DNA from: an uncultured Anaerolineales bacterium
GTDB lineage: Bacteria > Chloroflexota > Anaerolineae > Anaerolineales > E44-bin32
Direction of reading: 5' to 3'
Assembly: GCA_965195195.1 (NCBI GenBank)
Contig: CBDAFF010000039.1
Location: forward strand, 137,188-201,187
Length of the DNA stretch: 64,000 nt
A model generated the notes under the pieces. The model saw only the letters and a list, made by a program, of their open reading frames with translations, did not search any database and was not told the origin of the DNA. The position numbers and the translations under genes were made by a program. Numbering within the stretch: position 1 is the stretch's first letter; every line of letters starts with the position of its first letter. Below, one piece after another: positions 8,869-43,180 of the stretch.

Positions 8869-8875
8869 TTTTCCC

Positions 8876-10666: not shown

Positions 10667-10682
10667 GTTTCGAAGGGAGGTC

Positions 10683-11515: not shown

Positions 11516-11649
11516 CTTGCTTATCAAAAATTCATCCGGCGGCAGGATAAAACTCCGTGAATCGAGTGATGATTGACCTGATAGATGTGCGTATTCAAGC
11601 ACTCGGGTTGAAAACTATCGTATAATCGTATTGTCAATTGAATAGATAG

Positions 11650-11771: not shown

Positions 11772-11810
11772 AACCCGCGGCGTCACAGCACGCCAAGTTG
11801 AATGTATTTG

Positions 11811-11837
11811 CCCCGAAGATCCAGGTCTTCGGGGTTT
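11811..11837 (+). terminator. Riboswitch expression-platform terminator
   Basis: A perfect 9-bp GC-rich stem, CCCCGAAGA-tccagg-TCTTCGGGG, followed by TTT. It lies 40 nt after the aptamer and before the first plausible start codon of the permease. Confidence 0.6.
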
Positions 11838-11906
11838 GAATATATTCATAAACGTGCTGTGGAAGCTCATCCCATGCCCCAAATCCTGGGGCTTCTGTAT
11901 TTTTGG

Positions 11907-20262: not shown

Positions 20263-21239
20263 TGGCGCGTTATCTCCTTTCAGGTGCCGCCGGTTTTATC
20301 GGCGCTCGAGTAGCCAGACATCTGCTGGATTCGGGGTCTATCGTCATTGGCATCGATAATATCAACGACTCCTACGATCCACGCCTTAAAGAGTGGAGGC
20401 TTGAACAGTTCCGGGATGATGATCGTTTCACTTTAAAACGAATCAATATTACCAACCGAGATGAACTTGAGCGTGCACTTGGTGATGAGCCTTATGATGG
20501 CGTGATCAATCTCGCCGCCCGAGCTGGGGTTCGCCAGAGCGTAAGCGATCCATGGGTTTATTATGAGACGAATGTCATCGGGGCTTTGAATCTACTCGAT
20601 GCCTGCCGCGATCGGTCTATTCCTAAACTTGTTCAGGCTTCGACGTCAAGCTTGTATGGGCTGCACAACCCCAGGCCATATAACGAGGACGCTGACACAA
20701 GCCAGCCACTCTCTCCCTATGCGGCATCGAAGGGTGCAGCGGAGATGCTCTGTCATAGCTATCACCACCTGCACGAGATGGATATCACCATCCTGCGTTA
20801 CTTCACGGTCTATGGACCCGCGGGCCGTCCTGACATGAGTGTTTTCCGGTTCATCCAATGGATTGCCGAAGGGCGACCTCTGGTTTTGTATGGTGATGGT
20901 CTTCAGGAGCGCGATTTCACATTTGTCGAGGATATTGCCCGGGGAACAGTGGCCGCTCTACGCCCGTTGGGTTTTGAGGTGGTTAACCTGGGGGGAGATC
21001 GCCCGGTAAAAATGATGGACGTGATATCTATGATTGAAGAGCGTCTCGGCAAGAGCGCTGACATCGATCAAAGGGAAACTGCACCTGCGGATATGCCCTC
21101 TACGTGGGCTGATATTCACAAGGCGCAGAGACTTCTCGACTGGCGCCCCGAGGTTTCGCTGGAGACAGGCTTGGAAGATGCAATCTCGTGGTATCTCCAG
21201 GAGCGGGATTGGGCGGAATCCATCCCAACCACTGACTAG
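20262..21239 (+). CDS. Extended-SDR NAD-dependent epimerase (UDP-glucuronate / UDP-HexNAcA 4-epimerase-like, TviC/Cap1J-like)
   Basis: GAAGFIG, IDNINDSYDPRLK and the YxxxK motif in SPYAASKGAAE. It is translationally coupled to the dehydrogenase. Confidence 0.8.
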   Translation: MARYLLSGAAGFIGARVARHLLDSGSIVIGIDNINDSYDPRLKEWRLEQFRDDDRFTLKRINITNRDELERALGDEPYDGVINLAARAGVRQSVSDPWVYYETNVIGALNLLDACRDRSIPKLVQASTSSLYGLHNPRPYNEDADTSQPLSPYAASKGAAEMLCHSYHHLHEMDITILRYFTVYGPAGRPDMSVFRFIQWIAEGRPLVLYGDGLQERDFTFVEDIARGTVAALRPLGFEVVNLGGDRPVKMMDVISMIEERLGKSADIDQRETAPADMPSTWADIHKAQRLLDWRPEVSLETGLEDAISWYLQERDWAESIPTTD

Positions 21240-22625: not shown

Positions 22626-23768
22626 ATGCGAATCGCACTTATCTCCGCTTCAAGGGTGCCGTCTCGTACGGCCAATTCCATTGAGGTAATGAAGGTCTGT
22701 CAGGCTTTCATTGATCTTGGTCATGAAATTCATCTCTGGCTTCCAAGTCCTGAGCTAAAGATGGTCTGGGCCGAACTAAAAGAGTTTTATGGTATTCGAG
22801 ATTCATTCCCGATTTCCTGGCTGACCAGTTCCCGAGTTTTTCAGCGGTATGATTTTTCCCTTCGAGCAGTCTTGAAGGCGCGGGCATGGGATCCGTCGCT
22901 GTTTTATATTTGGCCGCTTCAGGCGGCGGCGATTGCATCATCGTTGGGGTTGCCGACTGCATTGGAGGTTCATGATCGCCCGCAAGGTCGTCTGGGACCG
23001 ATCCTGTTTCGCAGGTTCCTTGAGGGTAGGGGAGCGACTAGGGTCCTCCCGATCACAGAGGCGATGCGTGAGTGGTTAAGTGATGCCTATCAAGTTGATC
23101 TTGAGCCGCCCTTCGCTCTTGTCGCACCAATGGGAATGGACCTGGCGCAGTATCACAATCTCCCTGATCCGGAAAATGCGAGAGAAACAATAGGTCTTAA
23201 TGAGGGTTTCACAGCCGGTTATGCCGGCCATCTCTATGCAGGGCGGGGGATTGATATGTTAATGGATCTGGCCTGGCGCAACCCAGATGTCCACTTCTTA
23301 TGGGCTGGTGGTGAACCCGAAGCGGTTGAGTTCTGGCGCAGCCGGCTGCAGAAAGCTGGCTTGCAGAACGTCAAGCTCTTTGGTTTTGTTCCCAACGAGC
23401 GGTTGCCGTTGGTTCAAGCGGCTTGTGATGTACTGCTGATGCCCTATGAGCCTAAGATTTCCGTCAGCAGCGGGGGAGATACGGCGCAATTTGCCAGCCC
23501 GATGAAGCAGTTTGAGTATCTTGCATCGGGAAGGGCAATACTCGCCAGTGATTTACCAGTTTTTCGTGAGGTCCTGAATGAGGAAAACGCGGTTTTGCTT
23601 CCGCCCAATGATGTAGCAGCATGGGACCAAGCGCTGAATCAATTGATAGCGGATGATAGCCGCCGGAATTCGTTTGGGGAGAGAGCGCGCAAAGACGCTG
23701 CTCAATACGACTGGCGTGACCGCGCTAGAAGGTTGCTTGAGGGTTTGGAAAAAATCGATGCTACATGA
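22626..23768 (+). CDS. GT-B glycosyltransferase, family 4-like
   Basis: A C-terminal EX7E-type region (FEYLASGRAILASDLPVFREVL) and GT4-like length and architecture. Confidence 0.8.
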   Translation: MRIALISASRVPSRTANSIEVMKVCQAFIDLGHEIHLWLPSPELKMVWAELKEFYGIRDSFPISWLTSSRVFQRYDFSLRAVLKARAWDPSLFYIWPLQAAAIASSLGLPTALEVHDRPQGRLGPILFRRFLEGRGATRVLPITEAMREWLSDAYQVDLEPPFALVAPMGMDLAQYHNLPDPENARETIGLNEGFTAGYAGHLYAGRGIDMLMDLAWRNPDVHFLWAGGEPEAVEFWRSRLQKAGLQNVKLFGFVPNERLPLVQAACDVLLMPYEPKISVSSGGDTAQFASPMKQFEYLASGRAILASDLPVFREVLNEENAVLLPPNDVAAWDQALNQLIADDSRRNSFGERARKDAAQYDWRDRARRLLEGLEKIDAT

Positions 23769-25119
23769 TCTTGGCGCACGTTTAGGAACGTATGTACGGA
23801 AACGGGAATTCCTATGGCCAGGATCTCTTCTGCTGCTAGGGGTACTGTTGCGCGCCTGGCTGTGGTTCAGTTATGAACCGATATCCTATGGCGATACAGG
23901 ATCCTACATGCGTCTGGGGGAAGCCCTCAAAGATCTATCCTTCAGCGGTTATGACGGCACACGCGTTCCTGGTTACCCGGCCTTTCTGGCGCTGCTCGAC
24001 TTGCAGCCCGATCGAGTGTGGTTCGTGCAGATGCTCATGGGGCTGACGATATCGATGCTTCTGTACTGGATTACCTGGCGGACGACGAACAGTATGGTGC
24101 TCGGTTTTGTCGTTGGCGCTCTCTACAATCTAATCCCCGGGCAGTTCCTCTTTGAAGCCAACCTCCTGACGGAAACGCTTACGACGTTCTTTGTCGTTTT
24201 AAGTCTTTGCCTGTTCGTTTGTTTCACGCGCGTTCGAAGCCCTGCTTGGGGCTATGGTCTCGTGCTATTACTGGGAGTGGCAGTCAGCGTGGTGGGTTTG
24301 ATCCGTCCTTTATTTTTCCCATTAACGATATGGTTCCTTCCCTTTATCTGGCTTGCAGCAAACGGGGATTGGAAAAAAAAGCTGCTGTTCGTCGCGTTGT
24401 ATTCCCTGGGTCCGTTAATCCTGCAGGGCAGCTGGTTGGTCTACATGAAACAGCATTATCACGTACTATCGCCCACAGCGATGGCGGGATACAGTCTCGT
24501 GCAGCATACGGGGGAGTACTTCGAATTTCTTCCCGATGAGTACGCATCTATTCGCGACACCTATATCCGCTTCCGGGATGCGCAGATTGCTGCGCGCGGG
24601 GTGCAGACCAATGCCATCTGGGAGGCGATCCCGGAGATCTCGAAGGCATCAGGTTTAGGTTTCTATGAGCTCGCGCGCGAGATGCAGCGGCTCTCTTGGT
24701 GGTTGATTCGGCATCATCCTGATCTCTATTTAAAAAACGTCATCGTCGGCTGGATCTCGTTCTGGAAAGCGCCCGTTTATTGGCGTCCAGAAGCGGTACA
24801 ATCGGTATTTGCAGGGGGAATCTTGAGTGGGATAGCGATTGTTGGAAGAGGAATCTCCCTGCTGGCGAATTTCCTGTTCCTCGTTTTTAGTGTGTTGGTT
24901 GCCGCAAGTGCCAAGTGGCGCCGAAGATTGCAGTTCGATTTAATTTCTATGGCGGTGGGTGGGATGATCTGGATGATTTCCATCCTGCAAACGCTCCTCG
25001 ATCATGGCGACAACCCGCGTTTTCTTGTACCTTTGCAGGTATTGGTACTTTACCTGGTTGTCCGTAGTCTCTGGTTTTGGAGCAAGGGAAGAGTCGGCCT
25101 GGAGGTCATTGACCGTTGA
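23758..25119 (+). CDS. Polytopic membrane protein, GT-C-like (ArnT/PMT_2-like) putative glycosyltransferase
   Basis: About 12 predicted TM segments. There is an acidic motif in the first extracytoplasmic loop (EPISYGDTGSY) and a C-terminal DNPRFLVPL motif shared with the next gene. ATG 23758 overlaps the GT4 stop, and the track's longer N-terminus (23653) is read through the GT4 gene. Confidence 0.55.
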   Translation: MLHDLGARLGTYVRKREFLWPGSLLLLGVLLRAWLWFSYEPISYGDTGSYMRLGEALKDLSFSGYDGTRVPGYPAFLALLDLQPDRVWFVQMLMGLTISMLLYWITWRTTNSMVLGFVVGALYNLIPGQFLFEANLLTETLTTFFVVLSLCLFVCFTRVRSPAWGYGLVLLLGVAVSVVGLIRPLFFPLTIWFLPFIWLAANGDWKKKLLFVALYSLGPLILQGSWLVYMKQHYHVLSPTAMAGYSLVQHTGEYFEFLPDEYASIRDTYIRFRDAQIAARGVQTNAIWEAIPEISKASGLGFYELAREMQRLSWWLIRHHPDLYLKNVIVGWISFWKAPVYWRPEAVQSVFAGGILSGIAIVGRGISLLANFLFLVFSVLVAASAKWRRRLQFDLISMAVGGMIWMISILQTLLDHGDNPRFLVPLQVLVLYLVVRSLWFWSKGRVGLEVIDR

Positions 25120-26696
25120 AACGAATTGGGATTGCCCTGGCGTGGATCCTCCCGATGCTGGCTGCTTGCGCCATCTTGTCCAGTTCTGATCTCTTTGGCT
25201 TCACCATCCAAGGCTGGTTGGCTTATTCACTATTAATGAGCATCTCCTTGCTCATTATTTATTTCGTTTGGGTTTATTTTCGCAGGGAAGGCGCGGGAAA
25301 AGCCTTACTTGTGGCTGCCCTGGTCGCCTTGGGTTTGCGAGTTCTCGTGGGGGTCGTGCTCTATCGGGGTTTGCCAATCTGGGGTTATGATGAGAAACCA
25401 CAAAGGGCTGGTTATGTGTTCTGGGATTCTTACAAACGCGATACCGATGCCTGGTCACGATCCGGCATGGACCAAGCTCTTACAACCGCGTTTACAAACC
25501 CGACGGGAAGCGACCAGTACGGGGGGTTGCTATTTCTTAGCTCCAGCATCTATCGCTATCTCAGCCCGGATACCCAGCGCCCATTATTAATCGTCGTAAT
25601 GTCGGCCGCGGTTTCGGCACTGGCGGTGCTTTTCACTTGGGGATTTGCGGCTTCTGTTATGGGGGACAAGGTGGCGATGATTACTGCCTGGATCGTTGCG
25701 CTATATCCTGAGGCGGTGCTGCTGGGGGCATCGCAGATGCGCGAACCATTTCTCATTGCTGCCCTGGCTGCTGCCCTTTATGGTTATTCACGGATGCGGA
25801 AAGGGGAGTTGAAGGGTGGGATCGCGATCGTCGTGGCATCTGCATTGATATTGGCTTTGCCGATATCACCACCATTTGTGATCGTGATTTTTGCGATTAT
25901 CGCCTCGGCTTGGTTTTGGGAAGGGCTTGGAATTGGGCCGCGCAGAAGGTTATTCGTTCTAGTTCTTCTCGGCGTGATTGTCCTGGCAGCTCTAGCACTC
26001 GCCGTCCGAGCGTGGGCGGGTTTGGATGCCATCGCCGGCTCCCCTTGGGAAGTTGTTCGCGAATGGTGGGTGAATGCAGGAGATCAATGGCGGGTTACAC
26101 TCGTCAGCGAACAATCAGATATGCTCGATACCCTGCTTGATCGTTTGCCGGCCAGTTTTCAGACCCCTTTCCTCGTCCTATATGGTCTCATCCAACCTTT
26201 CTTGCCGGCTGCCCTGATTGCACCGGGTGCGCCTATCTGGCGCAGCATCGGTATTTGGCGCAGTCTGGGATGGTTCCTGATGCTGCCGTTTCTGCTGTAT
26301 GGGACTTGGCTGGCTTTCAGGAGAAAGGGATGGAGGAGCTTGGAGAGCTATCTCGCCGTTCTAATCTGGGTGACGGCGTTGATTTCCTCCTACCGTGCCC
26401 CGGGGTACCAGTGGGATAACCCCCGCTATCGGGTTATATTCCTTGCAGCCCAGGCTGCTCTAATCGCATGGACTTGGGTTGAGGTGCGTCGTATTGAAAG
26501 CCCCTGGCTGAAACGCTGGTTTGTAATCCTTAGCGTTGACTATCTGCTCGTTACGTATTGGTATATCGGTCGATACTACGACACGCCTTCACTCGGCCTG
26601 GAAGCAACATTAGGGAGTATTCTCTTCTTCACGGTCGTCTATCTGGTAGGAATGCTCCTCTCTGACGTTATTCGTACGAAAAAACTACGGAGCTAG
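25116..26696 (+). CDS. Polytopic membrane protein, GT-C-like glycosyltransferase or polymerase candidate
   Basis: 526 aa and highly hydrophobic. Loop motifs WDSYKRDTDAW and YPEAVLLGASQMREPF, plus a C-terminal WDNPRYRVIF. It overlaps the upstream gene by 4 nt. Confidence 0.5.
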   Translation: MKRIGIALAWILPMLAACAILSSSDLFGFTIQGWLAYSLLMSISLLIIYFVWVYFRREGAGKALLVAALVALGLRVLVGVVLYRGLPIWGYDEKPQRAGYVFWDSYKRDTDAWSRSGMDQALTTAFTNPTGSDQYGGLLFLSSSIYRYLSPDTQRPLLIVVMSAAVSALAVLFTWGFAASVMGDKVAMITAWIVALYPEAVLLGASQMREPFLIAALAAALYGYSRMRKGELKGGIAIVVASALILALPISPPFVIVIFAIIASAWFWEGLGIGPRRRLFVLVLLGVIVLAALALAVRAWAGLDAIAGSPWEVVREWWVNAGDQWRVTLVSEQSDMLDTLLDRLPASFQTPFLVLYGLIQPFLPAALIAPGAPIWRSIGIWRSLGWFLMLPFLLYGTWLAFRRKGWRSLESYLAVLIWVTALISSYRAPGYQWDNPRYRVIFLAAQAALIAWTWVEVRRIESPWLKRWFVILSVDYLLVTYWYIGRYYDTPSLGLEATLGSILFFTVVYLVGMLLSDVIRTKKLRS

Positions 26697-26773
26697 AGAG
26701 AAACCCTCTTGAGAGGTATAATTCAGCGATTGAATATTGGCTCGCGATCTTGCATACCTAAGGGAATTGAAAA

Positions 26774-27859
26774 ATGACGAAAGCTTTAATCACCGGTATC
26801 ACAGGACAGGACGGCTCATATCTGGCAGAGTTATTGCTGCACAAGGGATATGAAGTTCATGGCCTGATTCGGATAACGAGTTCGTTTAACACTGAACGCA
26901 TCGACCATATCTACCAGGACCCACATGACCCCTCCGCGAAGCTGTTCCTGCATTATGGCAACCTGTCGAATGGTGAGCAGTTGACGAACATGGTCTACAA
27001 CGTCCAGCCGGACGAGATCTATCACATGGGCGCACAATCGCACGTAAAAGTGAGCTTTGACATGCCGGCGTATACGGGTAATGTCACCGGACTGGGGACG
27101 ACGCGCATTCTGGAAGCTATTCGGCGAAGCGAGATTAAAACTCGCTTCTACCAGGCGTCCTCCAGTGAGATGTTCGGCAATGCGCCGCCCCCGCAAAGCG
27201 AGGAGACGGTTTTCGAACCGCGCAGCCCATACGCGATCGCAAAAGTGTATGCTTATTGGATGACGGTTAACTACCGTGAAGCCTACGATATGTTTGCGGC
27301 GAATGGGATATTGTTCAACCACGAAAGCCCCAGGAGGGGACCGACGTTCCTATCGCGTAAAGTGACGCGGGCTGTGGCGAGGATAAAGGCTGGACTGCAG
27401 CAAAAAGTTTACCTCGGGAATCTTGACTCGCGCCGCGATTACGGATATACGCCGGAGTATGTTGAAGTCATGTGGCAAATCTTGCAGCAGGATCAGCCCG
27501 ACGACTTCGTCATTGGAACCGGGGTCGCCCCGACCATCCGCGAGTTTGTGGAAGAAGCATTTGCCTACGCTGACATGGATTGGCAGGAATACGTAGAAAT
27601 CGACCCGCGCTATTTTCGACCGACGGAGGTCGACTATCTCCATGCCGACCCGTCTAAAGCTCGCCGTCAATTAGGATGGGAACCCAAGATTACATATAAG
27701 AAATTGGTGCCCATCATGGTCGATGCAGACCTCGAGGCTGTTGGGCAGGAACCAATCGGGGAGGGCTTGAAGATCCTGGATGAGCACTTCGATGATTGGC
27801 ATCGGTGGGATACGGGGGTTACAGCAGTGATTCAGAACGCCGGTAACGGCGTGGATTGA
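26774..27859 (+). CDS. gmd: GDP-mannose 4,6-dehydratase
   Basis: The N-terminus [30 protein letters not shown] is diagnostic. Also SSEMFG and [10 protein letters not shown] (YxxxK). Confidence 0.95.
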
Positions 27860-27865
27860 GGTGAA

Positions 27866-28900
27866 ATGATGGGGGAGGGAATAAGCAAAGAAACCGCTTC
27901 GCTGCCAGTGAGATCGGACAATAAGGACAAAAGAAAGGATGGGGTTCCCTATCTTTCCATTGTCGTTCCGGTCTTTAACGAGGTTGAAAACTTACGGCTT
28001 CTTTTCGATGCGATTTCGGAAGCATTGTCTGACATCTCCTACGAAATCATCTTCGTGGATGATGGCTCAAATGATGGAAGTGTGGAGATTCTCTTCGAAA
28101 TCGCTCAAGAAGCGAGCGATATTGTCAGCGTAATTCAATTCCGCAGGAATTTTGGTCAGACAGCCGCGATCGCAGCAGGCCTCGATTATTCGGCCGGAGA
28201 GATCATCGTCCTCTTGGATGCCGATCTGCAGAATGACCCCGCGGACATCCCCATGCTCGTTGAGAAGATCGAAGAGGGCTTCGATGTCGTTTCCGGGTGG
28301 CGGGTGGATCGGAAAGATACGCTGATAACCCGCACGATCCCCTCAAGGATGGCGAATTGGTTGATCTCGACAGTAACGGGCGTAAAACTGCATGACTACG
28401 GCTGCACATTAAAAGCATATCGAAGGGATGTCTTCGAAGGATTCCGCCTTTATGGTGAGATGCACCGCTTTATTCCAGCGTATGCAGTGTCTGTGGGGGC
28501 TCGCATCACAGAGGTTCCGGTTCAACACCACCCAAGGCGTTTTGGTGAGACAAAATACGGCTTGAGTCGTACGATCAAAGTCCTGCTTGACTTATTTACG
28601 GTGAAGTTCCTCATCAGCTATGGCCATAAGCCGATCTACCTCTTTGGTGGCGCAGGCATCCTGCTTATCGTGCCAAGCGTTCTCGTTTTGCTCTTCCTCG
28701 TCGTCCGCAGGCTGTGGCTTGGAATCTCAATCCTTGGTTCACCGCTGCTACAACTCAGTACGATGACGATGATCATGGGCTTCCAATCGATCTTAATGGG
28801 GCTGATAGCGGAGTTGTTGGTCCGCATTTATCATGAGTCACAAGCCAAGCCAACGTATTCCATCCGCAAGGTCGTCGCTCCGTCGCGCTCTGAAGCATGA
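27866..28900 (+). CDS. GT2 polyprenyl-phosphate sugar synthase-like glycosyltransferase (GtrB/ArnC/DPM1-like) with C-terminal TM helices
   Basis: VVPVFNE, DDGSNDGS, the DxD motif in LDADLQND, and two C-terminal TM helices as in GtrB/ArnC. Confidence 0.8.
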   Translation: MMGEGISKETASLPVRSDNKDKRKDGVPYLSIVVPVFNEVENLRLLFDAISEALSDISYEIIFVDDGSNDGSVEILFEIAQEASDIVSVIQFRRNFGQTAAIAAGLDYSAGEIIVLLDADLQNDPADIPMLVEKIEEGFDVVSGWRVDRKDTLITRTIPSRMANWLISTVTGVKLHDYGCTLKAYRRDVFEGFRLYGEMHRFIPAYAVSVGARITEVPVQHHPRRFGETKYGLSRTIKVLLDLFTVKFLISYGHKPIYLFGGAGILLIVPSVLVLLFLVVRRLWLGISILGSPLLQLSTMTMIMGFQSILMGLIAELLVRIYHESQAKPTYSIRKVVAPSRSEA

Positions 28901-29877
28901 AGCTGCGCCCCGACTTTTTTTCGCGTAAGAACATTATCAGGGTGATTGGCACCCTTCTATCCATCGTGTTACTCGTTTATCTTCTAAGCCAACAGGGTTG
29001 GAGCGAGATCGTCGATGCTTTACGCCAGATCCCTCCAATCAATTTGGTGCTGGTTGTCATCCTCATGGCGATCTCCCGGATTTCGGTGGGAGCGCGTTGG
29101 TATTCCCTTCTTCGGTCTACAACTTCGAATATATCGTTTGCGGAAAGTCTGCGGATAACATTCGCAGGTCTGTTCGCCGCGAATTTCCTGCCGACGACCA
29201 TCGGTGGAGATGTCGTTCGTTTAGCGGGAACATTGCCGCGCACAGAAGATCGTGTCGGGAGTGCTGCATCCATTGCCGCAGATCGTCTCGTAGGGCTTTC
29301 TGGGATGGCGATGGCGATCCCCTTAGGACTCGGTGTATTAATCGAATGGATTCAAACGAACGCAGTCGCAGGCTATTTATTCTTAAATCTCGTACGACGA
29401 TCTGGTTTTGCCCTCGCGCTCGCATTCAACTGGTCTGAAGGCTGGGATAAATTCATCAAGATGTTCCGCCGATTGATCGACGTGTTTGCCATGTGGATTC
29501 GTCGCCCGCGAGCCTTGATTACAGCTTTTGGGTTCACATGGCTGCATATGGCTTGTTTGTTTTCTTTATTATGGTTGCTGCTCACAGGCATGGGGCAGAC
29601 AATATCATTTCCAATGATCGCGGGCCTTTGGAGCTTCACATATTTAATTACCCTCATGCCCTTATCGATCAACGGCTTGGGCCTCCGCGAAGTTTCGATC
29701 TCGTATATTTTCACGAACTTGGGTGGGGTTTCAATACAAAGTGCGCTGGCACTTGCCCTGATCCTGAGGGCGTTAGAAATGATCGCAAGTATCCCCGGGG
29801 CGTTTTTCCTCCCGGCCGTTCTCTCAAGTGCAAACGGGAGGGTTGAAGCCGGGGTTGAAGCGGAACCTTCACCATAG
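28897..29877 (+). CDS. UPF0104 / lysyl-PG-synthase-TM-region-like flippase-like membrane protein
   Basis: About eight TM helices and the RWYSLLR-type motif of the flippase-like domain family. It is coupled by a 4-nt overlap to the GT2. Confidence 0.6.
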   Translation: MKLRPDFFSRKNIIRVIGTLLSIVLLVYLLSQQGWSEIVDALRQIPPINLVLVVILMAISRISVGARWYSLLRSTTSNISFAESLRITFAGLFAANFLPTTIGGDVVRLAGTLPRTEDRVGSAASIAADRLVGLSGMAMAIPLGLGVLIEWIQTNAVAGYLFLNLVRRSGFALALAFNWSEGWDKFIKMFRRLIDVFAMWIRRPRALITAFGFTWLHMACLFSLLWLLLTGMGQTISFPMIAGLWSFTYLITLMPLSINGLGLREVSISYIFTNLGGVSIQSALALALILRALEMIASIPGAFFLPAVLSSANGRVEAGVEAEPSP

Positions 29878-29883
29878 AGGACT

Positions 29884-31863
29884 ATGAGTGTGGAAAACTC
29901 TCTGAGCGATCGCCTCACCGGTTTGCGGTTTATCCTCATTGTGACCATTTTCCTGACATTAGGGGCTGTCGCTGACCAATTCCGCTATGCTCTCGAGATC
30001 CAGATCCTGGCGGTATCGTGGAAGTGGAAGCTGGCGCTTCTCCTGGGTGAAGTAGTACTGGCCGTTGAGATCGCAACCCTCCTCGCTACCTGGACTCCCT
30101 TGAGCGATCCGATCACCCGATGGGCTAATAAAATACCTTCTTTTGTTGAGCGCCTAGGGGGCCTTCGCTATCCGATCCTCGCCATCCTAATGCTGCTTTT
30201 ACCATTCTTGGTAATGGGGCCGTTTGGGTATTATTTTCAGTCCATCTATATACGAGCCCTGGTCTTCTGGTTCATACTCATTTGTAACTCTCTAATCCTG
30301 CAAAGCATGTGTCCACAGTGGACCTACACGAACATCCTTTTAGGCTTAGCGCTTATGCAAGCAGTGTTTTATCGTATAGCGGTGTTCTTGCCGGATCTCT
30401 CCATTTATCCGTTCTCATTGGGATGGTCTGAAGCCAGCAGATATTATTACGCATCCCTATTCTTTTCCGAGCGAATCTATGGCCTACAGATAAGCCCAAG
30501 TGTGCTTCACCCAACACGCTATCTTCTCCAGTCGATGCCATTCTTGTTCCCTGGCTCAGCGCTCTGGATGCATCGCCTTTGGCAAGTTGTTCTATGGCTT
30601 GCGACCACTTTTGGGGCGTCGTATCTGCTGATGAAAAGACTCAAGCTTACATGGGGATGGTCAGCATTACTTGTGATGGCATGGGCGTTCCTTTTCTTCT
30701 TCCAGGGACCGGTCTACTACCACCTGCAAATTACGATCATCCTCGTCTTGTGGGGCTTCGATCGAGAAAAACCTGCGCGCACTTTGATCGTTGTTCTGTT
30801 TGCTTCAGCCTGGGCAGGGATCAGTAGACTTAATTGGTTCCCTGTGCCGGGATTGATCGCTGCACTGCTATATTTCTTTGAGATTCCACGGGGCAATAAA
30901 TCAGCAGTACGGTATCTTGCATGGCCTGCTATTTTTGTTTTATCTGGCACAATCTGTGCGTTTCTCAGCCAATCAGCCTATGTAACGATATCAGGGCAGG
31001 ACGTAAATCGCTTCACGTCCAGCCTCGGCTCCCAGCTCCTGTGGTACCGATTGTTGCCGAGCGCGACTTACCCATTGGGAGTTCTGCCGGCGATCTTGCT
31101 GGCATCCCTGCCGGTTTTTCTTCTGATGTTTTTTTATTGGTGGTCAGGCAAAGGTTCAATGGCTCCGCTCCGCCAGCTTGGGGTTGCCGCGATCGCCTTG
31201 GTTCTTTTCGGGGGCGGTCTGGTGGTGAGTACGAAAATTGGCGGGGGGAGCAACCTGCATAACCTTGACGCCTATCTTGTGGTTCTTGCAGTGTTTGGTG
31301 TCTATCTCGTTGCAGGGGGTATTGAGCACGAGGAAGGCAGCGAGAGTGAAAAGTTCTATCCATCCCTGCCGATAAAAGGCCTCCTTGTCAGCGTCCCGAT
31401 CCTATTTGTCCTTGGTGCTGGATCACCCATTGTTCGTTACGATGCGGGACAAGCACAGAGCGCGCTTGATCTTGTGCAGGAATATGCACAAGACGCCGTG
31501 ATTGAAAACGAAGAGGTGCTCTTCATCTCTCAAAGGCACTTGCTGACTTTCGATAGGGTCCAGGATGTGCCGCTTGTCCCTGAGTACGAGACTGTCTTCC
31601 TGATGGAAATGGCCATGTCGGGGAACCAGGCGTATCTGGATGATTTTCATAACGACTTGAGAGAAGGTAGGTTTGGGTTGATCATAGTAGCGACTCTTGA
31701 GAGAGGATATCAGGGGAGATCTCATGCCTTTGGGGAGGAAAATGACGCCTGGGTGCGGGAGGTGTCCGAGCCAATCCTTTGCTACTACGCGCCAATACAA
31801 ACACTGGATTCACCCCGATTGCAGTTGTTAGCACCGCGAGCAGAGTCTGATTGGTGCGAGTGA
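29884..31863 (+). CDS. Large polytopic membrane protein (GT-C-like) with a C-terminal soluble domain of about 200 aa
   Basis: 659 aa, with more than 12 hydrophobic segments and then a hydrophilic C-terminal domain. Loop motif GWSEASRYYYASLFFSE. No confident family assignment. Confidence 0.45.
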   Translation: MSVENSLSDRLTGLRFILIVTIFLTLGAVADQFRYALEIQILAVSWKWKLALLLGEVVLAVEIATLLATWTPLSDPITRWANKIPSFVERLGGLRYPILAILMLLLPFLVMGPFGYYFQSIYIRALVFWFILICNSLILQSMCPQWTYTNILLGLALMQAVFYRIAVFLPDLSIYPFSLGWSEASRYYYASLFFSERIYGLQISPSVLHPTRYLLQSMPFLFPGSALWMHRLWQVVLWLATTFGASYLLMKRLKLTWGWSALLVMAWAFLFFFQGPVYYHLQITIILVLWGFDREKPARTLIVVLFASAWAGISRLNWFPVPGLIAALLYFFEIPRGNKSAVRYLAWPAIFVLSGTICAFLSQSAYVTISGQDVNRFTSSLGSQLLWYRLLPSATYPLGVLPAILLASLPVFLLMFFYWWSGKGSMAPLRQLGVAAIALVLFGGGLVVSTKIGGGSNLHNLDAYLVVLAVFGVYLVAGGIEHEEGSESEKFYPSLPIKGLLVSVPILFVLGAGSPIVRYDAGQAQSALDLVQEYAQDAVIENEEVLFISQRHLLTFDRVQDVPLVPEYETVFLMEMAMSGNQAYLDDFHNDLREGRFGLIIVATLERGYQGRSHAFGEENDAWVREVSEPILCYYAPIQTLDSPRLQLLAPRAESDWCE

Positions 31864-31952
31864 GCTCAGTAAAGAGGGGGATGGCAATTAGCGAATGTAT
31901 CTACGGGGAGAAAGCTGCGCAGCATCTCTAAGATGGCTTAACGAGGTGTAAT

Positions 31953-33977
31953 ATGTATTGGTTCAGAACCGGCAACGCGCTTGATGGACTAGCCCTCATC
32001 CCTTTTTTCTTCCTTTTCACAACGGGCGGGTGGTTATTATCAACACACGCTTTCAAACTCAAGTCCCGAGAGCGCGTCGTCATCGGTTTTGGGCTTGGTT
32101 TAGCGCTCACTCTGTGGTTCTCAAATTTGCTCGGGCGATGGCTTCCACCTCAGATCGCCTTCTGGGGCGCCGCAGGATTGGTCCTCATCCTGGGTTTATT
32201 ATCCACAACCTGGTCAGATCGCCCATTCCTGGATAAACAAGATCTTGAGGCGTGGCCTCTACTGCTGTTCTTCATGGGGATCACACTTCTCTTTACTTTG
32301 ATGGGACGCGGCTTGGGGATCTTCGACGATCGCAAGAACCTCTCGATCATTTCAACCATGGCCGCGGGTGACATCCCCCCGCATTTCTACATGAATTCAG
32401 GGTTCTTTTTTAAATACCATTACGGCTTCCAGTTGTTCGGTGCGAGCTTGATGCGCGTGGGCGGACTTTTCCCCTGGAGTGCGTTCGACTTAAGTAAAGG
32501 GATAACCGCGGGGTTAGCGATTGTGCTTGCTTACCTGTGGAGTTGGCGAGTTACCTATCGAAAGCTAGGTGGGGTGATCACGGCATTTGTGTTGACTTTC
32601 GCATCGGGGGGGCGGTGGTTGTTGACTTTACTGCCACCTTCGATTCTTTCTCGAGCTGGTGCTCAGCTCACCTTGTGGGGTTCCGGTGCACAATCTGCCT
32701 CCGACCTTCTTCAAGGGCTCAGTTCCCCATGGATCATCGATGGAGGGCCACCCGTTCCGATACCCTTCGCCTTTGTGAACGGCATCCTGCAACCTTTCGT
32801 CCTTTATCTACAAGCTGGACCGAAATCTCTCGCCCTGATTTTGCTTCTCCTGCTGCTCCTGATCTTCCGCCGCCGGGTGAACAAATTTGGTCTTCTTGTT
32901 ATAACGCTACTTATTGCACTGTGGGGGCTCACGGCAGAGGCGGAATTTGTACTCTTTGCAATCGGGCTCTTTAGTGCATTTATTGTTCTGCGTGCTTGGA
33001 GGGCCGAACCCGTCTGGAGGGTGGAACTTCGTACAGCAATAATTGTGTTGGTGATAGCGTCCGCAATCATCATCTTCCAGGGGGGGACGATTACCGAGAC
33101 TGTTAGGGGGATCATTCTGCCAGCTGAGAAAGTTCTTGCAGGGACAGCAGGCCCATCCGTCGGCTTCTCGCTGCGGTTCCCTCCTGCGATTGTATCTGCC
33201 CACCTGGGTGAGCTGCGAATCACCCAACCGGGAGAGCTGCTCATTGGACTTATGGAAATTGGTCCTGCCTTACTCTTAGGGCCGTTGATCGCATGGGCAT
33301 CCATCCGATGGGCAAAACGAGGTCGCTTTCTTTATCTCGCCATTGCGATCAGCACCTTCTTCGGTTTCGTCATTCCGCTGTTTCTTCGCTATGAAGTCGA
33401 TCGAGACATCACACGCTTAACAAATTATGCTTTGATGGGTTGGATACTCTTATCTGTGCCCCTTTTGAACACGTTTTGGTATTTAAAGCGTCCGCATTGG
33501 ATCCGGGCTGTTATCGTGACGGTGGTAGTGCTTGTAGTTTTCGGAGGGTTGGTCGTCGCAGGATCCCTATTTACTGCCATGCCAAAAGCCGTATTTGCCG
33601 ACGAAATTCAACCAGTTGATGCTGCCATGACTCGACTCGTGTGGGATGAACTCGAGCCAGGTGCGGAAGTGCTTGATTCGCGAAGTTGGAGGGCGGTTCC
33701 GATTACCGGTCGGCTGACGCGATCTGCGGTTGATAGCTACGCCGAGTTAAGTTCATGGGCTGATCTTGTGGCTTTCCCCGATGTTCACCAGGTCTCGGGT
33801 GCAGGTTATCGTTACATCTACGTTGATGAGTTCTGGTGGGATTCTATGCCGGAGAATGCACGCGAATCTTATATGGACTCCTGTGTAAGGGTCATTCAAG
33901 AATTGCATGACAATGCAGCGAATGGTTCTCGTTGGTTATTTGATATTAGCGAGTGTGGACTAGACACAGAATCCTGA
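31953..33977 (+). CDS. Large polytopic membrane protein (GT-C-like / DUF2298-like) with a C-terminal soluble domain
   Basis: 674 aa. Loop motif AAGDIPPHFYMNSGFFFKYHYGFQ. The C-terminal domain of about 130 aa is hydrophilic. No confident family assignment. Confidence 0.45.
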   Translation: MYWFRTGNALDGLALIPFFFLFTTGGWLLSTHAFKLKSRERVVIGFGLGLALTLWFSNLLGRWLPPQIAFWGAAGLVLILGLLSTTWSDRPFLDKQDLEAWPLLLFFMGITLLFTLMGRGLGIFDDRKNLSIISTMAAGDIPPHFYMNSGFFFKYHYGFQLFGASLMRVGGLFPWSAFDLSKGITAGLAIVLAYLWSWRVTYRKLGGVITAFVLTFASGGRWLLTLLPPSILSRAGAQLTLWGSGAQSASDLLQGLSSPWIIDGGPPVPIPFAFVNGILQPFVLYLQAGPKSLALILLLLLLLIFRRRVNKFGLLVITLLIALWGLTAEAEFVLFAIGLFSAFIVLRAWRAEPVWRVELRTAIIVLVIASAIIIFQGGTITETVRGIILPAEKVLAGTAGPSVGFSLRFPPAIVSAHLGELRITQPGELLIGLMEIGPALLLGPLIAWASIRWAKRGRFLYLAIAISTFFGFVIPLFLRYEVDRDITRLTNYALMGWILLSVPLLNTFWYLKRPHWIRAVIVTVVVLVVFGGLVVAGSLFTAMPKAVFADEIQPVDAAMTRLVWDELEPGAEVLDSRSWRAVPITGRLTRSAVDSYAELSSWADLVAFPDVHQVSGAGYRYIYVDEFWWDSMPENARESYMDSCVRVIQELHDNAANGSRWLFDISECGLDTES

Positions 33978-34062: not shown

Positions 34063-34090
34063 TTGACTGTGAATAACATAGGGTTATAAT
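34063..34090 (+). promoter_or_regulatory. Near-consensus sigma-70-type promoter for the regulator gene, and probably for the downstream operon
   Basis: TTGACT (34063-34068), a 16-nt spacer, then TATAAT (34085-34090). AGGAG lies 8 nt before the GTG start at 34122. Confidence 0.6.
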
Positions 34091-34727: not shown

Positions 34728-35693
34728 ATGGCATCAAAATCAATGAACTCAGAATTCTGGAAGGATCGAAAGGTGTGCGTTACGGGAGGCGATGGTTTCC
34801 TCGGGTCCTACGTACTTGAAAAACTAGCCGAGCGGGGTGCAAATCAGGTTTTCGTGCCCAAGATTGAGGAATACAACATCGTCGAGCCCGAAGCGGTGAA
34901 ACGATTGCTCGTCGACGCGAATCCAGATTTGGTTCTGCATTTAGCTGCTAACGTAGGGGGTATTGGAGCAAACCAGGCACGCCCAGCGGAATTCTTCTAC
35001 GATAATCTCATGATGGGTGTCCAGTTGATGCATGAGGCTTGGAAAGCTGGTGTCTCAAAATTCGTCGCCATCGGGACCGTATGCGCCTACCCGAAATTTA
35101 CGCCGGTGCCTTTCCGGGAGGAAACTCTCTGGGACGGATACCCTGAGGAGACCAACGCGCCGTACGGTCTGGCAAAGAAGATGCTCCTGGTCCAATCGCA
35201 ATCCTACCGCCAGCAATACAACTTCAACTCGCTTTTTTTAATCCCGGTGAATCTTTACGGTCCTAGGGATAATTTCAATTTAGAGACTTCGCATGTCATT
35301 CCGGCATTGATCCGCAAGTGCTTCGAGGCGCAAGAACGAGGCGATGATGAAATTGTTGTGTGGGGAGATGGGTCGCCCACGCGTGAATTCCTTTACGCCG
35401 AAGACGCGGCAGAAGGAATACTGCTCGCGGCCGAGGGCTACAACTCTAGCGATCCCGTCAACCTTGGGTCGGGTGAAGAGATCAGCATAAAGGACCTGGT
35501 GACTAAGATCGTGGAGTTTACAGGGTTTGAAGGACGGCTGGTTTGGGATACCAGCCGCCCCAATGGGCAGCCTCGCCGGGGGTTAGACACTTCCAGGGCA
35601 AAGGAGCGATTTGGTTTTCAAGCGCAAGTCAAGCTTGAGGGTGGTTTGAAACGTACAGTTGAATGGTACCGTAAGGCGCGAGAGCAAGCCTGA
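34728..35693 (+). CDS. fcl: GDP-L-fucose synthase (GDP-4-keto-6-deoxymannose 3,5-epimerase/4-reductase)
   Basis: [18 protein letters not shown] (YxxxK), NLYGPRDNF and [10 protein letters not shown], all typical Fcl/WcaG blocks. Confidence 0.9.
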
Positions 35694-36575: not shown

Positions 36576-37835
36576 ATGAATGATGCAATTAGGGTTGAGG
36601 ATTTAGGGAAACGGTATCGAATCGGCGGTATGCCGAGTGGGTATCGGACATTGCGAGATGCTCTGGCGAGCAGCCTGCGCCGGTTGAGCCGCCGTGAACC
36701 CCCACCATCAAAAGACACAATCTGGGCTTTGAGACACATTAATTTCAATGTGGAGCGAGGGCAAGTGCTGGGTATTGTAGGCCGGAATGGCGCCGGGAAG
36801 AGCACACTCTTGAAGCTGCTCTCGCGCGTTACAGATCCGACAGAGGGAAAGGCGGAGATCTATGGGCGTGTGGGCTCGCTGCTTGAGGTCGGCACTGGTT
36901 TTCACCCCGAACTCACCGGACGGGAAAATATTTATCTCAATGGTGCCATCCTGGGCATGAAGCGCGCCGAGATCGAGCGCAAGTTCGAAGAAATCGTGGA
37001 CTTCGCGGAGGTGCGAAAATTCATCGATACCCCCGTGAAACGCTATTCCAGCGGCATGTACCTTCGCCTTGCTTTCGCCGTAGCGGCTCATTTAGAGCCG
37101 GAGATTCTCGTCGTTGACGAGGTTCTGGCGGTCGGAGATGCAGAGTTTCAGCGCAAATGTCTGGGCAAGATGAGCGATGTTGCCCATGAGGGACGGACAG
37201 TACTTTTTGTCAGTCACAATATGTCGGCAATCCTGCGCCTAACCGAAGAGACGATTGTGCTGGATAAGGGGCAGATTGTAATGCGGGGTCCCACGCCTGA
37301 GGCCGTGGATTTCTACATGACCTCGGAAATGGCGCGTTCGGGGGAGCGCCGGTGGGAACCAGGCGACGATTACCAGACCAACAACCCGTTTCATCCGCTG
37401 GCCATTCGCGTTCTTGATTCTCAAGGAAGAGTAGCAGATCGAGTGCTCTCTTCCGAGGATTTCAGTGTGGAGTTCGAGTATGAGCTTCAGGAGGAGTTAA
37501 CCGGTTTGCGAGTGGGGATGTACTTGGCTACAAGTCGAGGCGAGCAGGTTTTCACATCCTTTGATACGGATAATCCAGAGACATACGAACGTCTCACGGA
37601 ACGACGCAAGGGTCACTATCTCAGCAGGTGCCGCATCCCACGCGATCTTCTCAACGGAGGAGTTTTCGTCCTCGGCGTTAATGCCAGCTCATTTCGGATT
37701 CGGTCCTACTTCACAGATGAACATGCGCTCACCTTCACCGTCGATCCGACGGGCGCACCAGGGAGTCAATGGGCTGAGTTTCGACGTGGACCTGTTCGCC
37801 CGGCACTGAACTGGGAAATCACCAAGGTTGTGTGA
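36576..37835 (+). CDS. wzt: Polysaccharide export ABC ATPase (Wzt-like) with a C-terminal extension of about 170 aa (probable glycan-binding Wzt_C-type domain)
   Basis: Walker A GRNGAGKST, signature YSSGMYLRLAFA, Walker B ILVVDEVLAVGD. After about residue 250 there is an extra beta-rich domain, as in O-antigen Wzt proteins that recognise chain-terminal caps. Confidence 0.85.
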   Translation: MNDAIRVEDLGKRYRIGGMPSGYRTLRDALASSLRRLSRREPPPSKDTIWALRHINFNVERGQVLGIVGRNGAGKSTLLKLLSRVTDPTEGKAEIYGRVGSLLEVGTGFHPELTGRENIYLNGAILGMKRAEIERKFEEIVDFAEVRKFIDTPVKRYSSGMYLRLAFAVAAHLEPEILVVDEVLAVGDAEFQRKCLGKMSDVAHEGRTVLFVSHNMSAILRLTEETIVLDKGQIVMRGPTPEAVDFYMTSEMARSGERRWEPGDDYQTNNPFHPLAIRVLDSQGRVADRVLSSEDFSVEFEYELQEELTGLRVGMYLATSRGEQVFTSFDTDNPETYERLTERRKGHYLSRCRIPRDLLNGGVFVLGVNASSFRIRSYFTDEHALTFTVDPTGAPGSQWAEFRRGPVRPALNWEITKVV

Positions 37836-39466
37836 TAACCATGCCATCAACCCGGTCTTGGATAAAAACGCTAGCCGGTCAGATTCCTATGACGGCAGAG
37901 TTGTACCAGAACCTTTTTGGGCGCGAGCGTCTGCCTGCGGACGGTTTTGAATTAAACCGCCTCAAGGGACATTTGCCCTCCTGGACTGCGGCTGTTGCCG
38001 AGGTTCGAAGGGGCGCAGAGAAGGCTGACCTTAAGCGCGTAGTGGTTTTCGGGTACCTCCATTGGTGGCTGGAGTACGCCACAGCGCTGGCCCTAATGCT
38101 TGTGGCGCAGGGTCATGAAGTAACGCTGGCATTCCTACCGTACCGCCGCTGGACGGATGAAGTCGCCGCGTTTGATATCCGCCGCCAACGCACGTATATC
38201 CAGCGCGTTTTAGCACAAGCGGCTCCAGTGTTGAAGTATCAGGATTTATCGGCAGTGCGCCCCGGAGAGCTTCCAGAAGCTTTGGAGCAATCGCTCCGAC
38301 AGTTGTCCCACACGGATGTTCAATACACCTTGCAGCGAGAAGATGTCAACTTGAAGGAGGGCAGTTCCGAGGAAGCCCTTTTTGAATTACGACTTCGTCG
38401 GAACCGGACTGCGGCTGCAGGGATTTTCGAACTGCTCAACAAGGGTTCTTTCGATGCAATCGTGATACCCAATGGGAGCATTTTGGAGTTTGGCGCGGTT
38501 TATCGAACCGCGCGTCATCTGGGTGTGCCATCCATAACGTATGAATTTGGAGAACAGAGTGGGCGCATGTGGCTGAGTCAGAACGATGAAGTGATGAGGC
38601 AGGATACAAAAGCGCTCTGGGATGTTAGAGGGTCGATTCCCCTGGCTGATGCAGAGAGAGATGAGCTTCATTCGCTCCTTCAAGCCCGCCGGGGCGGAAA
38701 AACATGGGGGAATTTTGGTCGTCAATGGCAAACAGGGGAGAGCCACGGCGCAATGGGTGTCCGCCAAGTTTTGGGGCTAGATCCCGATCAGCCTGTCGTT
38801 CTGCTGGCGACAAACGTCGTTGGCGACAGTCTGGCGCTCAACAGGCAGATCTTTACCGACGGGATGTCAGATTGGCTTGAGCATACCGTTAAATATTTTG
38901 CAGAGCGATCTGATGCGCAGCTCGTCGTCCGCGTCCATCCGGGGGAGCTATTGGGCGCGGGGCATCCGTCTATTGAAATCGTGCGAAGCAGCCTCCCGGA
39001 GATGCCGGAGCATGTCGTTGTTGTACCGCCCGAGTCTGAGATAAACACCTACGACCTGATTGAACTTGCCCACTTGGGTCTTGTCTACACAACAACTACA
39101 GGATTGGAGATGGCATTGAGTGGAGTGCCGGTCATCACCGCAGGACAAACCCATTACCGCAGCAAGGGTTTCACAGACGATCCTTTGAGCCTGGAGGAGT
39201 ATCTTAACTTGATTGAAAGTCGGCTCGGAGAACCACTTGGGCGCCGATTGGATGAGAACCAGGTAAACCTCGCCTGGCGGTACGCTCACCGTTTCTTCTT
39301 TGAGTATCCTTTTCGATTCCCCTGGCACTTGCTGCAGTTCTGGGATGATATGGCCTCGCATCCTCTGGAAGAGGTTATCCAATCGACCAGAGTTAAACCA
39401 TATCTAGAGACCCTGAAAGTATTCACAGGTGAACCGATAAACTGGTTGAAACATGGTAATGAATGA
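37832..39466 (+). CDS. Capsule_synth-like (KpsC/KpsS-like) putative ulosonic/nonulosonic-acid transferase
   Basis: Blocks resembling those of the KpsC/KpsS family: PVVLLATNVVGDSLAL (compare LPLQVxxDSQ) and LVVRVHPGE (compare KxHP). This is recognised from memory of the family, so confidence is only moderate. Confidence 0.45.
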   Translation: MITMPSTRSWIKTLAGQIPMTAELYQNLFGRERLPADGFELNRLKGHLPSWTAAVAEVRRGAEKADLKRVVVFGYLHWWLEYATALALMLVAQGHEVTLAFLPYRRWTDEVAAFDIRRQRTYIQRVLAQAAPVLKYQDLSAVRPGELPEALEQSLRQLSHTDVQYTLQREDVNLKEGSSEEALFELRLRRNRTAAAGIFELLNKGSFDAIVIPNGSILEFGAVYRTARHLGVPSITYEFGEQSGRMWLSQNDEVMRQDTKALWDVRGSIPLADAERDELHSLLQARRGGKTWGNFGRQWQTGESHGAMGVRQVLGLDPDQPVVLLATNVVGDSLALNRQIFTDGMSDWLEHTVKYFAERSDAQLVVRVHPGELLGAGHPSIEIVRSSLPEMPEHVVVVPPESEINTYDLIELAHLGLVYTTTTGLEMALSGVPVITAGQTHYRSKGFTDDPLSLEEYLNLIESRLGEPLGRRLDENQVNLAWRYAHRFFFEYPFRFPWHLLQFWDDMASHPLEEVIQSTRVKPYLETLKVFTGEPINWLKHGNE

Positions 39467-40382: not shown

Positions 40383-40387
40383 TCGAG

Positions 40388-41392: not shown

Positions 41393-41403
41393 CTCACAAG
41401 AAT

Positions 41404-42324: not shown

Positions 42325-42358
42325 TTCGTCCACACCGCAGAGCTTGAGGATATACAAG

Positions 42359-43162: not shown

Positions 43163-43180
43163 TCGAGGAAGGTTAATATT

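Follow-up and report, generated by a model that had tools for sequence, protein, structure and literature searches.

Three-component extracytoplasmic glycosylation systems, including ones that act on O antigens exported by ATP-binding cassette (ABC) transporters, are described in the available text of PMC11127046. In these systems, exemplified by GtrA/GtrB/Gtr* of Shigella and Salmonella and by Klebsiella O2, a family 2 glycosyltransferase (GT2) of the GtrB/ArnC type with a C-terminal anchor is found together with a candidate flippase and large polytopic proteins. A comparable arrangement was found in a stretch of 64,000 nucleotides (nt; referred to as the window) from an uncultured Anaerolineales bacterium (GenBank assembly GCA_965195195.1, contig CBDAFF010000039.1): five genes encoding a GDP-mannose 4,6-dehydratase (gmd), a GT2 enzyme (referred to as GT2), a flippase-like protein of the UPF0104 family, and two large membrane proteins (M659 and M674). 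In addition to these kinds of component, the locus shares with the Klebsiella type the clustering of the genes beside a glycan pathway with an ABC transporter (Wzm/Wzt). The synthase and a conserved linkage were present, but in comparison with the systems covered by the available text, the candidate flippase was from another family (MprF-TM/UPF0104 instead of GtrA/SMR, Wzx, or MATE), M659 as the constant partner had no GT-C family match by sequence, and several more GT-C-like proteins were encoded in the cluster.

UPF0104 proteins were predicted to be glycosylation flippases occurring beside archaeal AglD-like GT2 and PMT/STT3-like genes (Makarova et al. 2015, PMC5898192, available sections), and the present locus resembles these AglD-type neighborhoods in the linkage of a GT2, a UPF0104 protein, and a large membrane glycosyltransferase-like protein. 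On the other hand, GT2 and UPF0104 are fused in AglD, whereas two genes with an ATGA overlap were found here; the present system is bacterial and order-specific, its GT2 scored higher with ArnC (232 bits) than with AglJ (77.6 bits), and M659 was not PMT/STT3-like by sequence. From the aminoarabinose (ArnC/ArnT) pathway, ArnC was the best match of GT2, with an identical DADLQN motif and conserved Arg/Ser positions; the score was far below the cut-off, ArnA, ArnB, ArnD, and ArnT were lacking, and no ArnE/F-type small flippase was found among the annotated open reading frames (ORFs).

Streptococcal systems for rhamnose polysaccharide side chains (GacI/GacL and SccN/SccM) are the subject of 10.1101/180810 and PMC11754754. 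In such systems, a 6-deoxyhexose polymer made in the cytoplasm is exported by an ABC transporter and decorated outside from the polyprenyl-phosphate-sugar of a GtrB-type GT2. The plan proposed for the present locus, known from genes alone, is similar in its ABC-exported 6-deoxyhexose polymer and outside decoration, but differs in the use of gmd and fcl (GDP-linked) instead of dTDP-rhamnose, in the flippase family, and in extracytoplasmic components that are different and more numerous. A stand-alone UPF0104 protein beside the enzyme making its presumed lipid is also a feature of MprF, HexSDF, and GpgSDF (available parts of PMC12713373 and 10.1101/2022.03.11.483950); these act, however, on phosphatidylglycerol/diacylglycerol lipids with GT4 or aminoacyl-transferase enzymes, in contrast to the polyprenyl-phosphate GT2 of the present locus.

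The locus appears to contain a module of the three-component type with an MprF-type flippase candidate and a nameless, order-restricted membrane-protein family. We consider it somewhat probable that two functions meet at the gmd-GT2 junction: a sugar supply by Gmd/Fcl and a module of GT2, the flippase-like protein, and M659. Gmd and an Fcl-family enzyme would produce a GDP-6-deoxyhexose, most probably GDP-L-fucose, for cytoplasmic glycosyltransferases, and their product would be exported by Wzm/Wzt. The ArnC/GtrB-like GT2 would charge polyprenyl phosphate with a sugar at the inner membrane face, the MprF-type flippase-like protein would carry this lipid-linked sugar across the membrane, and M659 (plus M674 where present) would pass it to an acceptor in the envelope, either the exported glycan or another one; upstream PMT_2-like proteins may also draw on the lipid-linked donor. 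The lipid carrier, the flipping, the transferase role of M659/M674, and the acceptor are what we infer from the genes.

If correct, this would be the first bacterial case of the UPF0104 flippase family serving polyprenyl-phosphate-sugars, and a testable case for the long-standing prediction of lipid-linked sugar flipping by UPF0104/MprF-type proteins. A large family of proteins, with 1145 clusters at 50% identity and a name in no database, would gain a role. Furthermore, the supercluster would build the main envelope glycopolymer of these filamentous bacteria, and be a candidate locus for the main envelope glycan of Anaerolineales. Understanding of the Chloroflexota cell envelope is poor, and a literature search on it returned, in the text available, ultrastructural and genomic papers only.

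The five genes and the donor of GT2

Five ORFs were confirmed, head to tail on the + strand, in a window that carries a long run of + strand genes:

26774-27859, + strand: gmd, GDP-mannose 4,6-dehydratase, 361 amino acids
27866-28900, + strand: GT2, putative polyprenyl-phosphate glycosyltransferase of the ArnC/GtrB type, 344 amino acids
28897-29877, + strand: flippase-like gene, UPF0104/MprF-TM (PplT), 326 amino acids
29884-31863, + strand: M659, polytopic, ending in an acidic soluble domain, putative extracytoplasmic transferase, 659 amino acids
31953-33977, + strand: M674, polytopic candidate GT-C with distant similarity to DUF2298, ending in an acidic soluble domain, 674 amino acids

The TGA of gmd (27857-27859) was followed by 6 nt and then the ATG of GT2, with a Shine-Dalgarno-like GAGGTG just 5' of this ATG. 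GT2 and the flippase-like gene overlapped by ATGA (28897-28900), 6 nt separated the TAG of the latter (29875-29877) from the ATG of M659, and the spacing between M659 and M674 was 89 nt. These ORFs and junctions confirmed the original prediction in having gmd followed directly by GT2, with two membrane proteins of 659 and 674 amino acids further on, and in the overlap of GT2 with the UPF0104 gene, described there as translational coupling. The five genes of the predicted block also stood, while its start at 26717 fell inside a 77-nt gap, 57 nt 5' of the gmd ATG.

GT2 matched PF00535 (116.6 bits), and two or three hydrophobic segments at residues 255-321 were consistent with a C-terminal hairpin. 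The highest similarity to known structures was found with ArnC (9bhc, 8vxh, and 9hwj): 211 bits in a full-length alignment that took in the hydrophobic hairpin at the C terminus and extended through residue 340. The GtrB structure gave 141 bits, also over the full length, and the GDP-mannose enzyme PfDPMS gave 75 bits in the GT-A domain only. The scores with the models for AglJ and the haloarchaeal dolichyl phosphate (Dol-P)-hexose transferase were 77.6 and 48.7 bits, respectively. With regard to the residue roles and DXD motif of ArnC reported in the available part of 10.1101/2025.01.29.634835, GT2 carried the identical DADLQN; R146 and S160 aligned with R128 and S141 of ArnC, the Arg and Ser associated with the acceptor phosphate, and R156 was beside the position of ArnC R137, shifted by one at a gap. 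The possibility that GT2 is ArnC proper was rejected: its score against the ArnC equivalog NF007986 was 232.6 bits (cut-off, 529), and homologues of ArnA, ArnB, ArnD, and ArnT were absent from the cluster. Because of the similarity to ArnC and GtrB, a UDP-sugar was favored and is the most likely donor of GT2.

A uronic acid (galacturonic or glucuronic acid; GalA/GlcA) is one candidate for this sugar because a ugd-epimerase pair is present in the supercluster to which the five genes belong (see below). GT2 would load it in a similar manner to RgtE of the Rhizobium Rgt system, and M674 and M659 would function like its GT-C transferases, RgtA-D. The supercluster has a conserved head consisting of the ugd gene and the epimerase gene, the latter of the short-chain dehydrogenase/reductase (SDR) family, and ArnC, the nearest characterised relative of GT2, uses a sugar derived from UDP-GlcA; furthermore, a cluster of the Atlas near M674 bears the automatic name 'RgtA/B/C/D-like domain-containing protein'. 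However, this name is unverified, the uronic acid could equally serve the cytoplasmic GT4, and GT2 was under the ArnC equivalog cut-off (232 vs 529 bits). We regard a uronic acid donor as unlikely.

Gene order in related loci and the use of the gmd product

The genes present, the families to which they belong, and the conservation of their linkage were observed directly. The best 80 loci from 448 species genomes encoding an M659 relative were compared, together with flanks of up to 10 kb; loci were annotated by blastp with the proteins of the window, using ORFs from stop to stop and a query coverage of at least 40%. The supercluster recurred in these 80 loci, and its membrane proteins were 40-55% identical. 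Since relatives of the whole block recurred in the 80 loci, the five-gene arrangement is not a product of chance.

Of 79 instances of M659 with an upstream gene, 66 were preceded by the flippase-like gene; the others were preceded by GT2 (3), an unrecognised ORF (8), or M659 or M674 (2). The gene before gmd was mem526, a membrane protein gene, in 33 of 38 instances with an upstream gene. The gene after gmd (47 instances) was GT2 in 13 and the flippase-like gene in 14; in 19 it was another ORF of 250 or more amino acids, and in 1 a second gmd match. Conversely, gmd was the gene before GT2 in 13 of 51 instances. Of the 61 loci with at least 6 kb 5' of M659, 27 contained both gmd and GT2, 15 contained only gmd, 15 contained only GT2, and 4 contained neither. 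Syntenic GT2 orthologues were 60-70% identical. In a close relative (L003; 87-96% identity), a gene for a 625-amino acid PMT_2-like protein was inserted between gmd and GT2; in L056, genes for a PMT_2 protein, a GT4, a phosphodiesterase, and a second UPF0104 protein were found at this position; and in L008, gmd was followed directly by the flippase-like gene and then by M659, with no GT2. The flippase-like gene and M659 form the conserved unit, which usually comes after GT2; sometimes GT2 alone precedes M659. The place of gmd is with the upstream genes, at whose end it follows mem526, and it may be missing or displaced.

One of the three instances with GT2 directly before M659 was that of Thermanaerothrix solaris (L076), a cultured bacterium, with 1 nt between the two genes; the flippase-like gene, gmd, and the supercluster were not found at this locus. 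The GT2-M659 pair (within 3517-11944) directly followed genes for Wzz/BY-kinase, a LysM protein, and an 830-amino acid surface protein with cadherin/Ig (Big_9) repeats. One possibility is that M659 glycosylates a surface protein instead of a polysaccharide.

Two promoter-like sites and an Fcl-family gene bear on the use of the gmd product:

26694-26722, + strand: sigma-70-like promoter match in the gap 5' of gmd, TAGAGA-17-TATAAT, 10 of 12 positions (weak)
34063-34090, + strand: best sigma-70-like promoter match, 5' of the MarR-type gene, TTGACT-16-TATAAT, 11 of 12 positions (weak)
34728-35693, + strand: Fcl-family GDP-4-keto-6-deoxymannose 3,5-epimerase/4-reductase, NF047922, 297 bits

The scanned region contained 8 sigma-70-like matches against a mean of 16.3 in shuffled controls; since this was fewer than in shuffled sequence, both promoter matches are weak leads only. 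They weakly hint at two transcription units, starting at gmd and the MarR-like gene.

Gmd scored 486.7 bits against TIGR01472 (cut-off, 415; profile positions 2-341 of 342), and was the single match above the cut-off in its own genome (92.5% complete, 95 contigs). The Fcl-like protein gave 297 bits against NF047922, under the equivalog cut-off of 500, and its top 18 PDB matches were all GDP-L-fucose synthases (best, 241 bits, full length). It is a member of the Fcl family by sequence, and probably a GDP-L-fucose synthase. No other good Fcl-like gene was found in the same genome: 296.8 bits for the cluster gene and 88.9 bits for the next match. This gene is located downstream of gmd in the same cluster, at a distance of 6.9 kb, and adjoins wzm/wzt. 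Tallies of fcl within 10 kb are undercounts because the Fcl-like gene can fall just beyond the fetched locus: five genomes without fcl within 10 kb of M659 each contained one Fcl-like gene, scoring 293-302 bits, and three of these genes were located 1.8-4.6 kb past the end of the fetched locus and on the strand of the cluster. The most likely fate of the gmd product is fucose synthesis for the neighboring exported glycan.

The donor of GT2 was originally predicted to be derived from the gmd product: GT2 would make a polyprenyl-phosphate-6-deoxyhexose from GDP-4-keto-6-deoxymannose, GDP-fucose, or GDP-rhamnose, for flipping and use outside the membrane. The 6-nt gap between gmd and GT2 with its Shine-Dalgarno-like GAGGTG, the promoter-like site 5' of gmd, and the presence of gmd within 10 kb 5' of M659 in 42 of the 61 loci are in line with such a pathway. 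The literature searched contained no mention of Und-P-Rha/rhamnose or Und-P-Fuc/fucose (Und-P, undecaprenyl phosphate), or dolichyl phosphate fucose (Dol-P-Fuc), and this donor would therefore be new if true. However, GT2 was adjacent to gmd in only 13 of 47 instances of gmd, and the two genes varied independently (27, 15, 15, and 4 loci, as described above). The pair of GT2 and M659 was found without a nearby gmd in Thermanaerothrix and in five checked genomes with gmd elsewhere, fcl (the usual partner of gmd) was in the cluster beside wzm/wzt, and GT2 was nearest to UDP-sugar enzymes. The idea of a lipid-linked 6-deoxyhexose is probably wrong, and we give very little credence to this particular donor; the feeding of GT2 by the gmd product was not supported. 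The direct adjacency of gmd and GT2 in the window is a local feature of gene order, and not a dedicated pathway.

When carriers of GT2-M659 were checked for a complete lack of gmd, all five genomes possessed it, and the comparison was not discriminating. Five genomes that kept GT2 with the flippase-like gene and M659, but had no gmd close by, all possessed gmd elsewhere (in the one complete chromosome among them, the gmd copies were more than 1 Mb away). The picture is close to one in which gmd is used purely with fcl for cytoplasmic GDP-fucose, with the Fcl gene beside wzm/wzt and the sole good match in the genome; we infer the exclusive use of the gmd product by Fcl. Overall, the pathway logic of the original prediction (synthase, flippase-like protein, and outward-acting membrane proteins) was upheld by the families and by the linkage of GT2, the flippase-like gene, and M659, whereas the gmd-derived donor was not.

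The flippase-like protein, M659, and M674

The flippase-like protein scored 118.5 bits against PF03706 (LPG_synthase_TM; cut-off, 33.4) and 65.8 bits against TIGR00374 ('flippase-like domain'; cut-off, 43.2). Fusions of the UPF0104 domain with glycosyltransferases, named 'PplT', are described in section 5 of 10.1101/2022.03.11.483950 (available text), and GpgF of Pseudomonas aeruginosa is a predicted flippase that is 'yet to be verified' in the available part of PMC12713373. The complex prediction for M659 and the flippase-like protein gave a score of 0.00, below the mark, which is neutral on binding. A second, divergent UPF0104 gene (28-31% identical) was located directly 5' of GT2 in seven relatives (L056, L024, L031, L052, L068, L069, and L080), in the order UPF0104-GT2-UPF0104-M659 after an alkaline-phosphatase-type phosphodiesterase (L056, 6829-9795).

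M659 and M674 both consisted of approximately 520-545 strongly hydrophobic residues followed by non-hydrophobic acidic tails of 140 and 127 amino acids, respectively, each with two conserved Cys: C633/C658 and C644/C668. The acidic tails with conserved Cys suggest a location outside the membrane; the hydropathy topology is crude, and too unreliable for siting conserved residues on one side. Neither protein matched Pfam, NCBIfam (window proteins), or PDB in sequence and profile searches, and no credible Pfam match was detected for 32 aligned family members or 7 distant paralogues of M659. The M659 profile hit 1145 clusters (50% identity) at E≤0.001 among 1.84 billion representatives; the 150 matches listed were all close, with no bridge to a known family among them. 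A search with its C-terminal domain among shorter proteins yielded unannotated fragments only. The hhalign probabilities of M659 with PMT_2, DUF2298, and Wzy_C were 4.4, 0.1, and 0.5%, respectively, and those with M674, mem488, and mem526 were all less than 5%; these negatives carry little weight because the method is insensitive, with the control pair of PMT_2 and DUF2298 also scoring just 0.7%.

M659 was a single copy in its own genome. Among 151 Chloroflexota genomes, it was matched in 11 of the 13 sampled from Anaerolineales (own included) and in none of the 138 outside. The close homologues of M659 and M674 were nameless proteins from metagenome bins of Anaerolineales and Chloroflexota. 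Single proteins fusing M659 with M674 (P0245, 1313 amino acids) and mem526 with M659 (P0353, 1141 amino acids) give some support to a functional link, and may be read-throughs of gene calling. A further record (P0249, 985 amino acids) fused M659 with an alpha/beta-hydrolase; only one was found, and it is possibly a read-through call.

PF10060 (DUF2298), which we take to be a member of the GT-C clan, was matched by 3 of 34 members of the M674 family (best E value, 4.1e-6). M674 itself gave a weak match (13 bits, E 0.035, residues ~132-231) and an hhalign probability of 39% over 79 columns. Of the 41 genomes sampled from the class, 40 encoded DUF2298 proteins, usually with two matches that were often neighbors, as seen in several genomes; in the genome of the window, a DUF2298 match and a PMT_2 match were located within one open frame of 1666 amino acids (G000, contig C29, 7139-15545).

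The invariant residues of M659 were rich in Arg and His: R186, H209, R212, H230, R231, H280, R315, R389, R430, K451, and H459. A similar pattern is also known in lipid-pyrophosphate-binding enzymes. These residues, and the persistence of the flippase-like gene and M659 without a cognate GT2, would suit an alternative in which the two are not a sugar-transfer pair: M659 may be a polymerase, ligase, export, or scaffold part for the Wzm/Wzt product, or the pair may modify and flip a lipid head group as in MprF, HexSDF, and GpgSDF. The characterised or proposed roles of UPF0104 concern phospholipids and glycolipids (available parts of PMC12713373 and 10.1101/2022.03.11.483950). However, GT2 was immediately 5' of the pair in most loci and directly 5' of M659 in Thermanaerothrix, and the hhalign probability of M659 with Wzy_C was only 0.5%, by an insensitive method (PMT_2 vs DUF2298, 0.7%). 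We hold a non-transfer pair to be improbable.

In the reading that we prefer, with GT2, the flippase-like protein, and M659 functioning as one module, M659 may found a new, Anaerolineales-restricted family of extracytoplasmic glycosyltransferases that uses a polyprenyl-phosphate-sugar with an MprF-type (UPF0104) flippase; we put this forward only tentatively. Several points weigh against the overall reading. The nucleotide and sugar specificity of GT2 is not readable from its sequence. Archaeal AglD-type GT2-UPF0104 fusions are linked to mannose/hexose transfer, and a GDP-sugar is therefore also a possible donor. To our knowledge, the flipping of polyprenyl-phosphate-sugars by any UPF0104 protein is backed by no assay. 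M659 has no detectable similarity to GT-C or other families, its proposed transferase role deriving from gene context, and the link between M674 and DUF2298 is weak. The promoter-like site just 5' of gmd means that gmd may be co-transcribed with GT2. Furthermore, the flippase-like gene and M659 occurred without a cognate GT2 in 15 of 61 loci, so that the pair is not strictly dependent on this GT2; among five genomes without it, the best GT2 elsewhere was 45-49% identical in four, and none was found at E≤1e-30 in one. Finally, the loci were the best 80 of 448 and from related species, and their counts are not independent events.

The surrounding supercluster

The five genes are part of an envelope-glycan supercluster of ~35 kb that is conserved across Anaerolineales, in the order ugd-epimerase-Wzx-like-GT4-mem488-mem526-[gmd]-[GT2]-flippase-like-M659-[M674]-MarR-fcl-wzm-wzt-onward. 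Its other genes in the window are as follows:

18925-20262, + strand: ugd-like nucleotide-sugar 6-dehydrogenase, first gene of the supercluster, TIGR03026, 456 bits (cut-off, 189.8)
20262-21239, + strand: SDR epimerase/dehydratase, Pfam Epimerase, 199.5 bits; PDB 5u4q, 249 bits, and 6zl6 ('epimerase domain-containing protein'), 218 bits
21240-22610, + strand: Polysacc_synt (Wzx-like MOP) membrane protein, PF01943, 60.5 bits
22626-23768, + strand: GT4 glycosyltransferase, PF13692 and PF00534
23653-25119, + strand: mem488, polytopic, GT-C-like (PMT_2-like), PMT_2, 21.9 bits, E 3.4e-4
25116-26696, + strand: mem526, polytopic, GT-C-like (PMT_2-like), conserved upstream neighbor of gmd, PMT_2, 16.1 bits
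34122-34649, + strand: gene similar to the MarR-family exopolysaccharide (EPS)-associated regulator, TIGR04176, 65.1 bits (below the cut-off of 88), and PF13412
35709-36569, + strand: wzm, ABC-2 permease, PF01061, 71.4 bits
36576-37835, + strand: wzt, ABC ATPase with a Wzt_C glycan-binding-type domain, PF00005, 77.1 bits, and PF14524, 30.7 bits

The ugd-like gene was kept at the head of related loci. The adjacent SDR gene is probably of the UDP-glucuronate 4-epimerase type, a label that draws on the activity we assume for 6zl6. The GT4 and mem488 ORFs as listed overlapped by 116 nt (within 22626-25119), and the real start of mem488 is probably a later start codon. The direct hidden Markov model scores of mem488 and mem526 with PMT_2 (21.9 and 16.1 bits) were below the cut-off; in hhalign against 29 PMT_2 proteins of Anaerolineales, they gave 95.1% (E 3.3e-8) and 95.4% (E 1.9e-8, 394 columns), respectively. 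PMT_2-type GT-C genes were numerous in this order, with 3-27 matches per genome at E≤1e-8 (13 genomes), and 13 matches above the cut-off were found in the genome of the window.

Further 3' of wzt were genes for a Capsule_synth-like protein, methyltransferases, PseB-, RmlD-, NeuB-, and cytidylyltransferase-type proteins, and more glycosyltransferases. The region 37832-46124 contained a gene set of the nonulosonic-acid type that was conserved in many related loci: a PseB equivalog (494.7 bits, above the cut-off), RmlD-like, NeuB, CMP-sugar cytidylyltransferase-like, and Capsule_synth (KpsC/KpsS-like) proteins. A second candidate lipid-sugar pair, consisting of a PMT_2-like GT-C (526 amino acids, 29.1 bits) followed by a GtrB/AglJ-like GT2 (325 amino acids), was located at 51869-54579, where the G+C content falls from ~0.51 to 0.44-0.46. 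The stretch of low G+C content that follows the glycan cluster also carried a Replic_Relax-like gene and one for an FtsK/HerA/TraG-like ATPase (55283-57915), which suggests an integrated mobile element at the end of the cluster.

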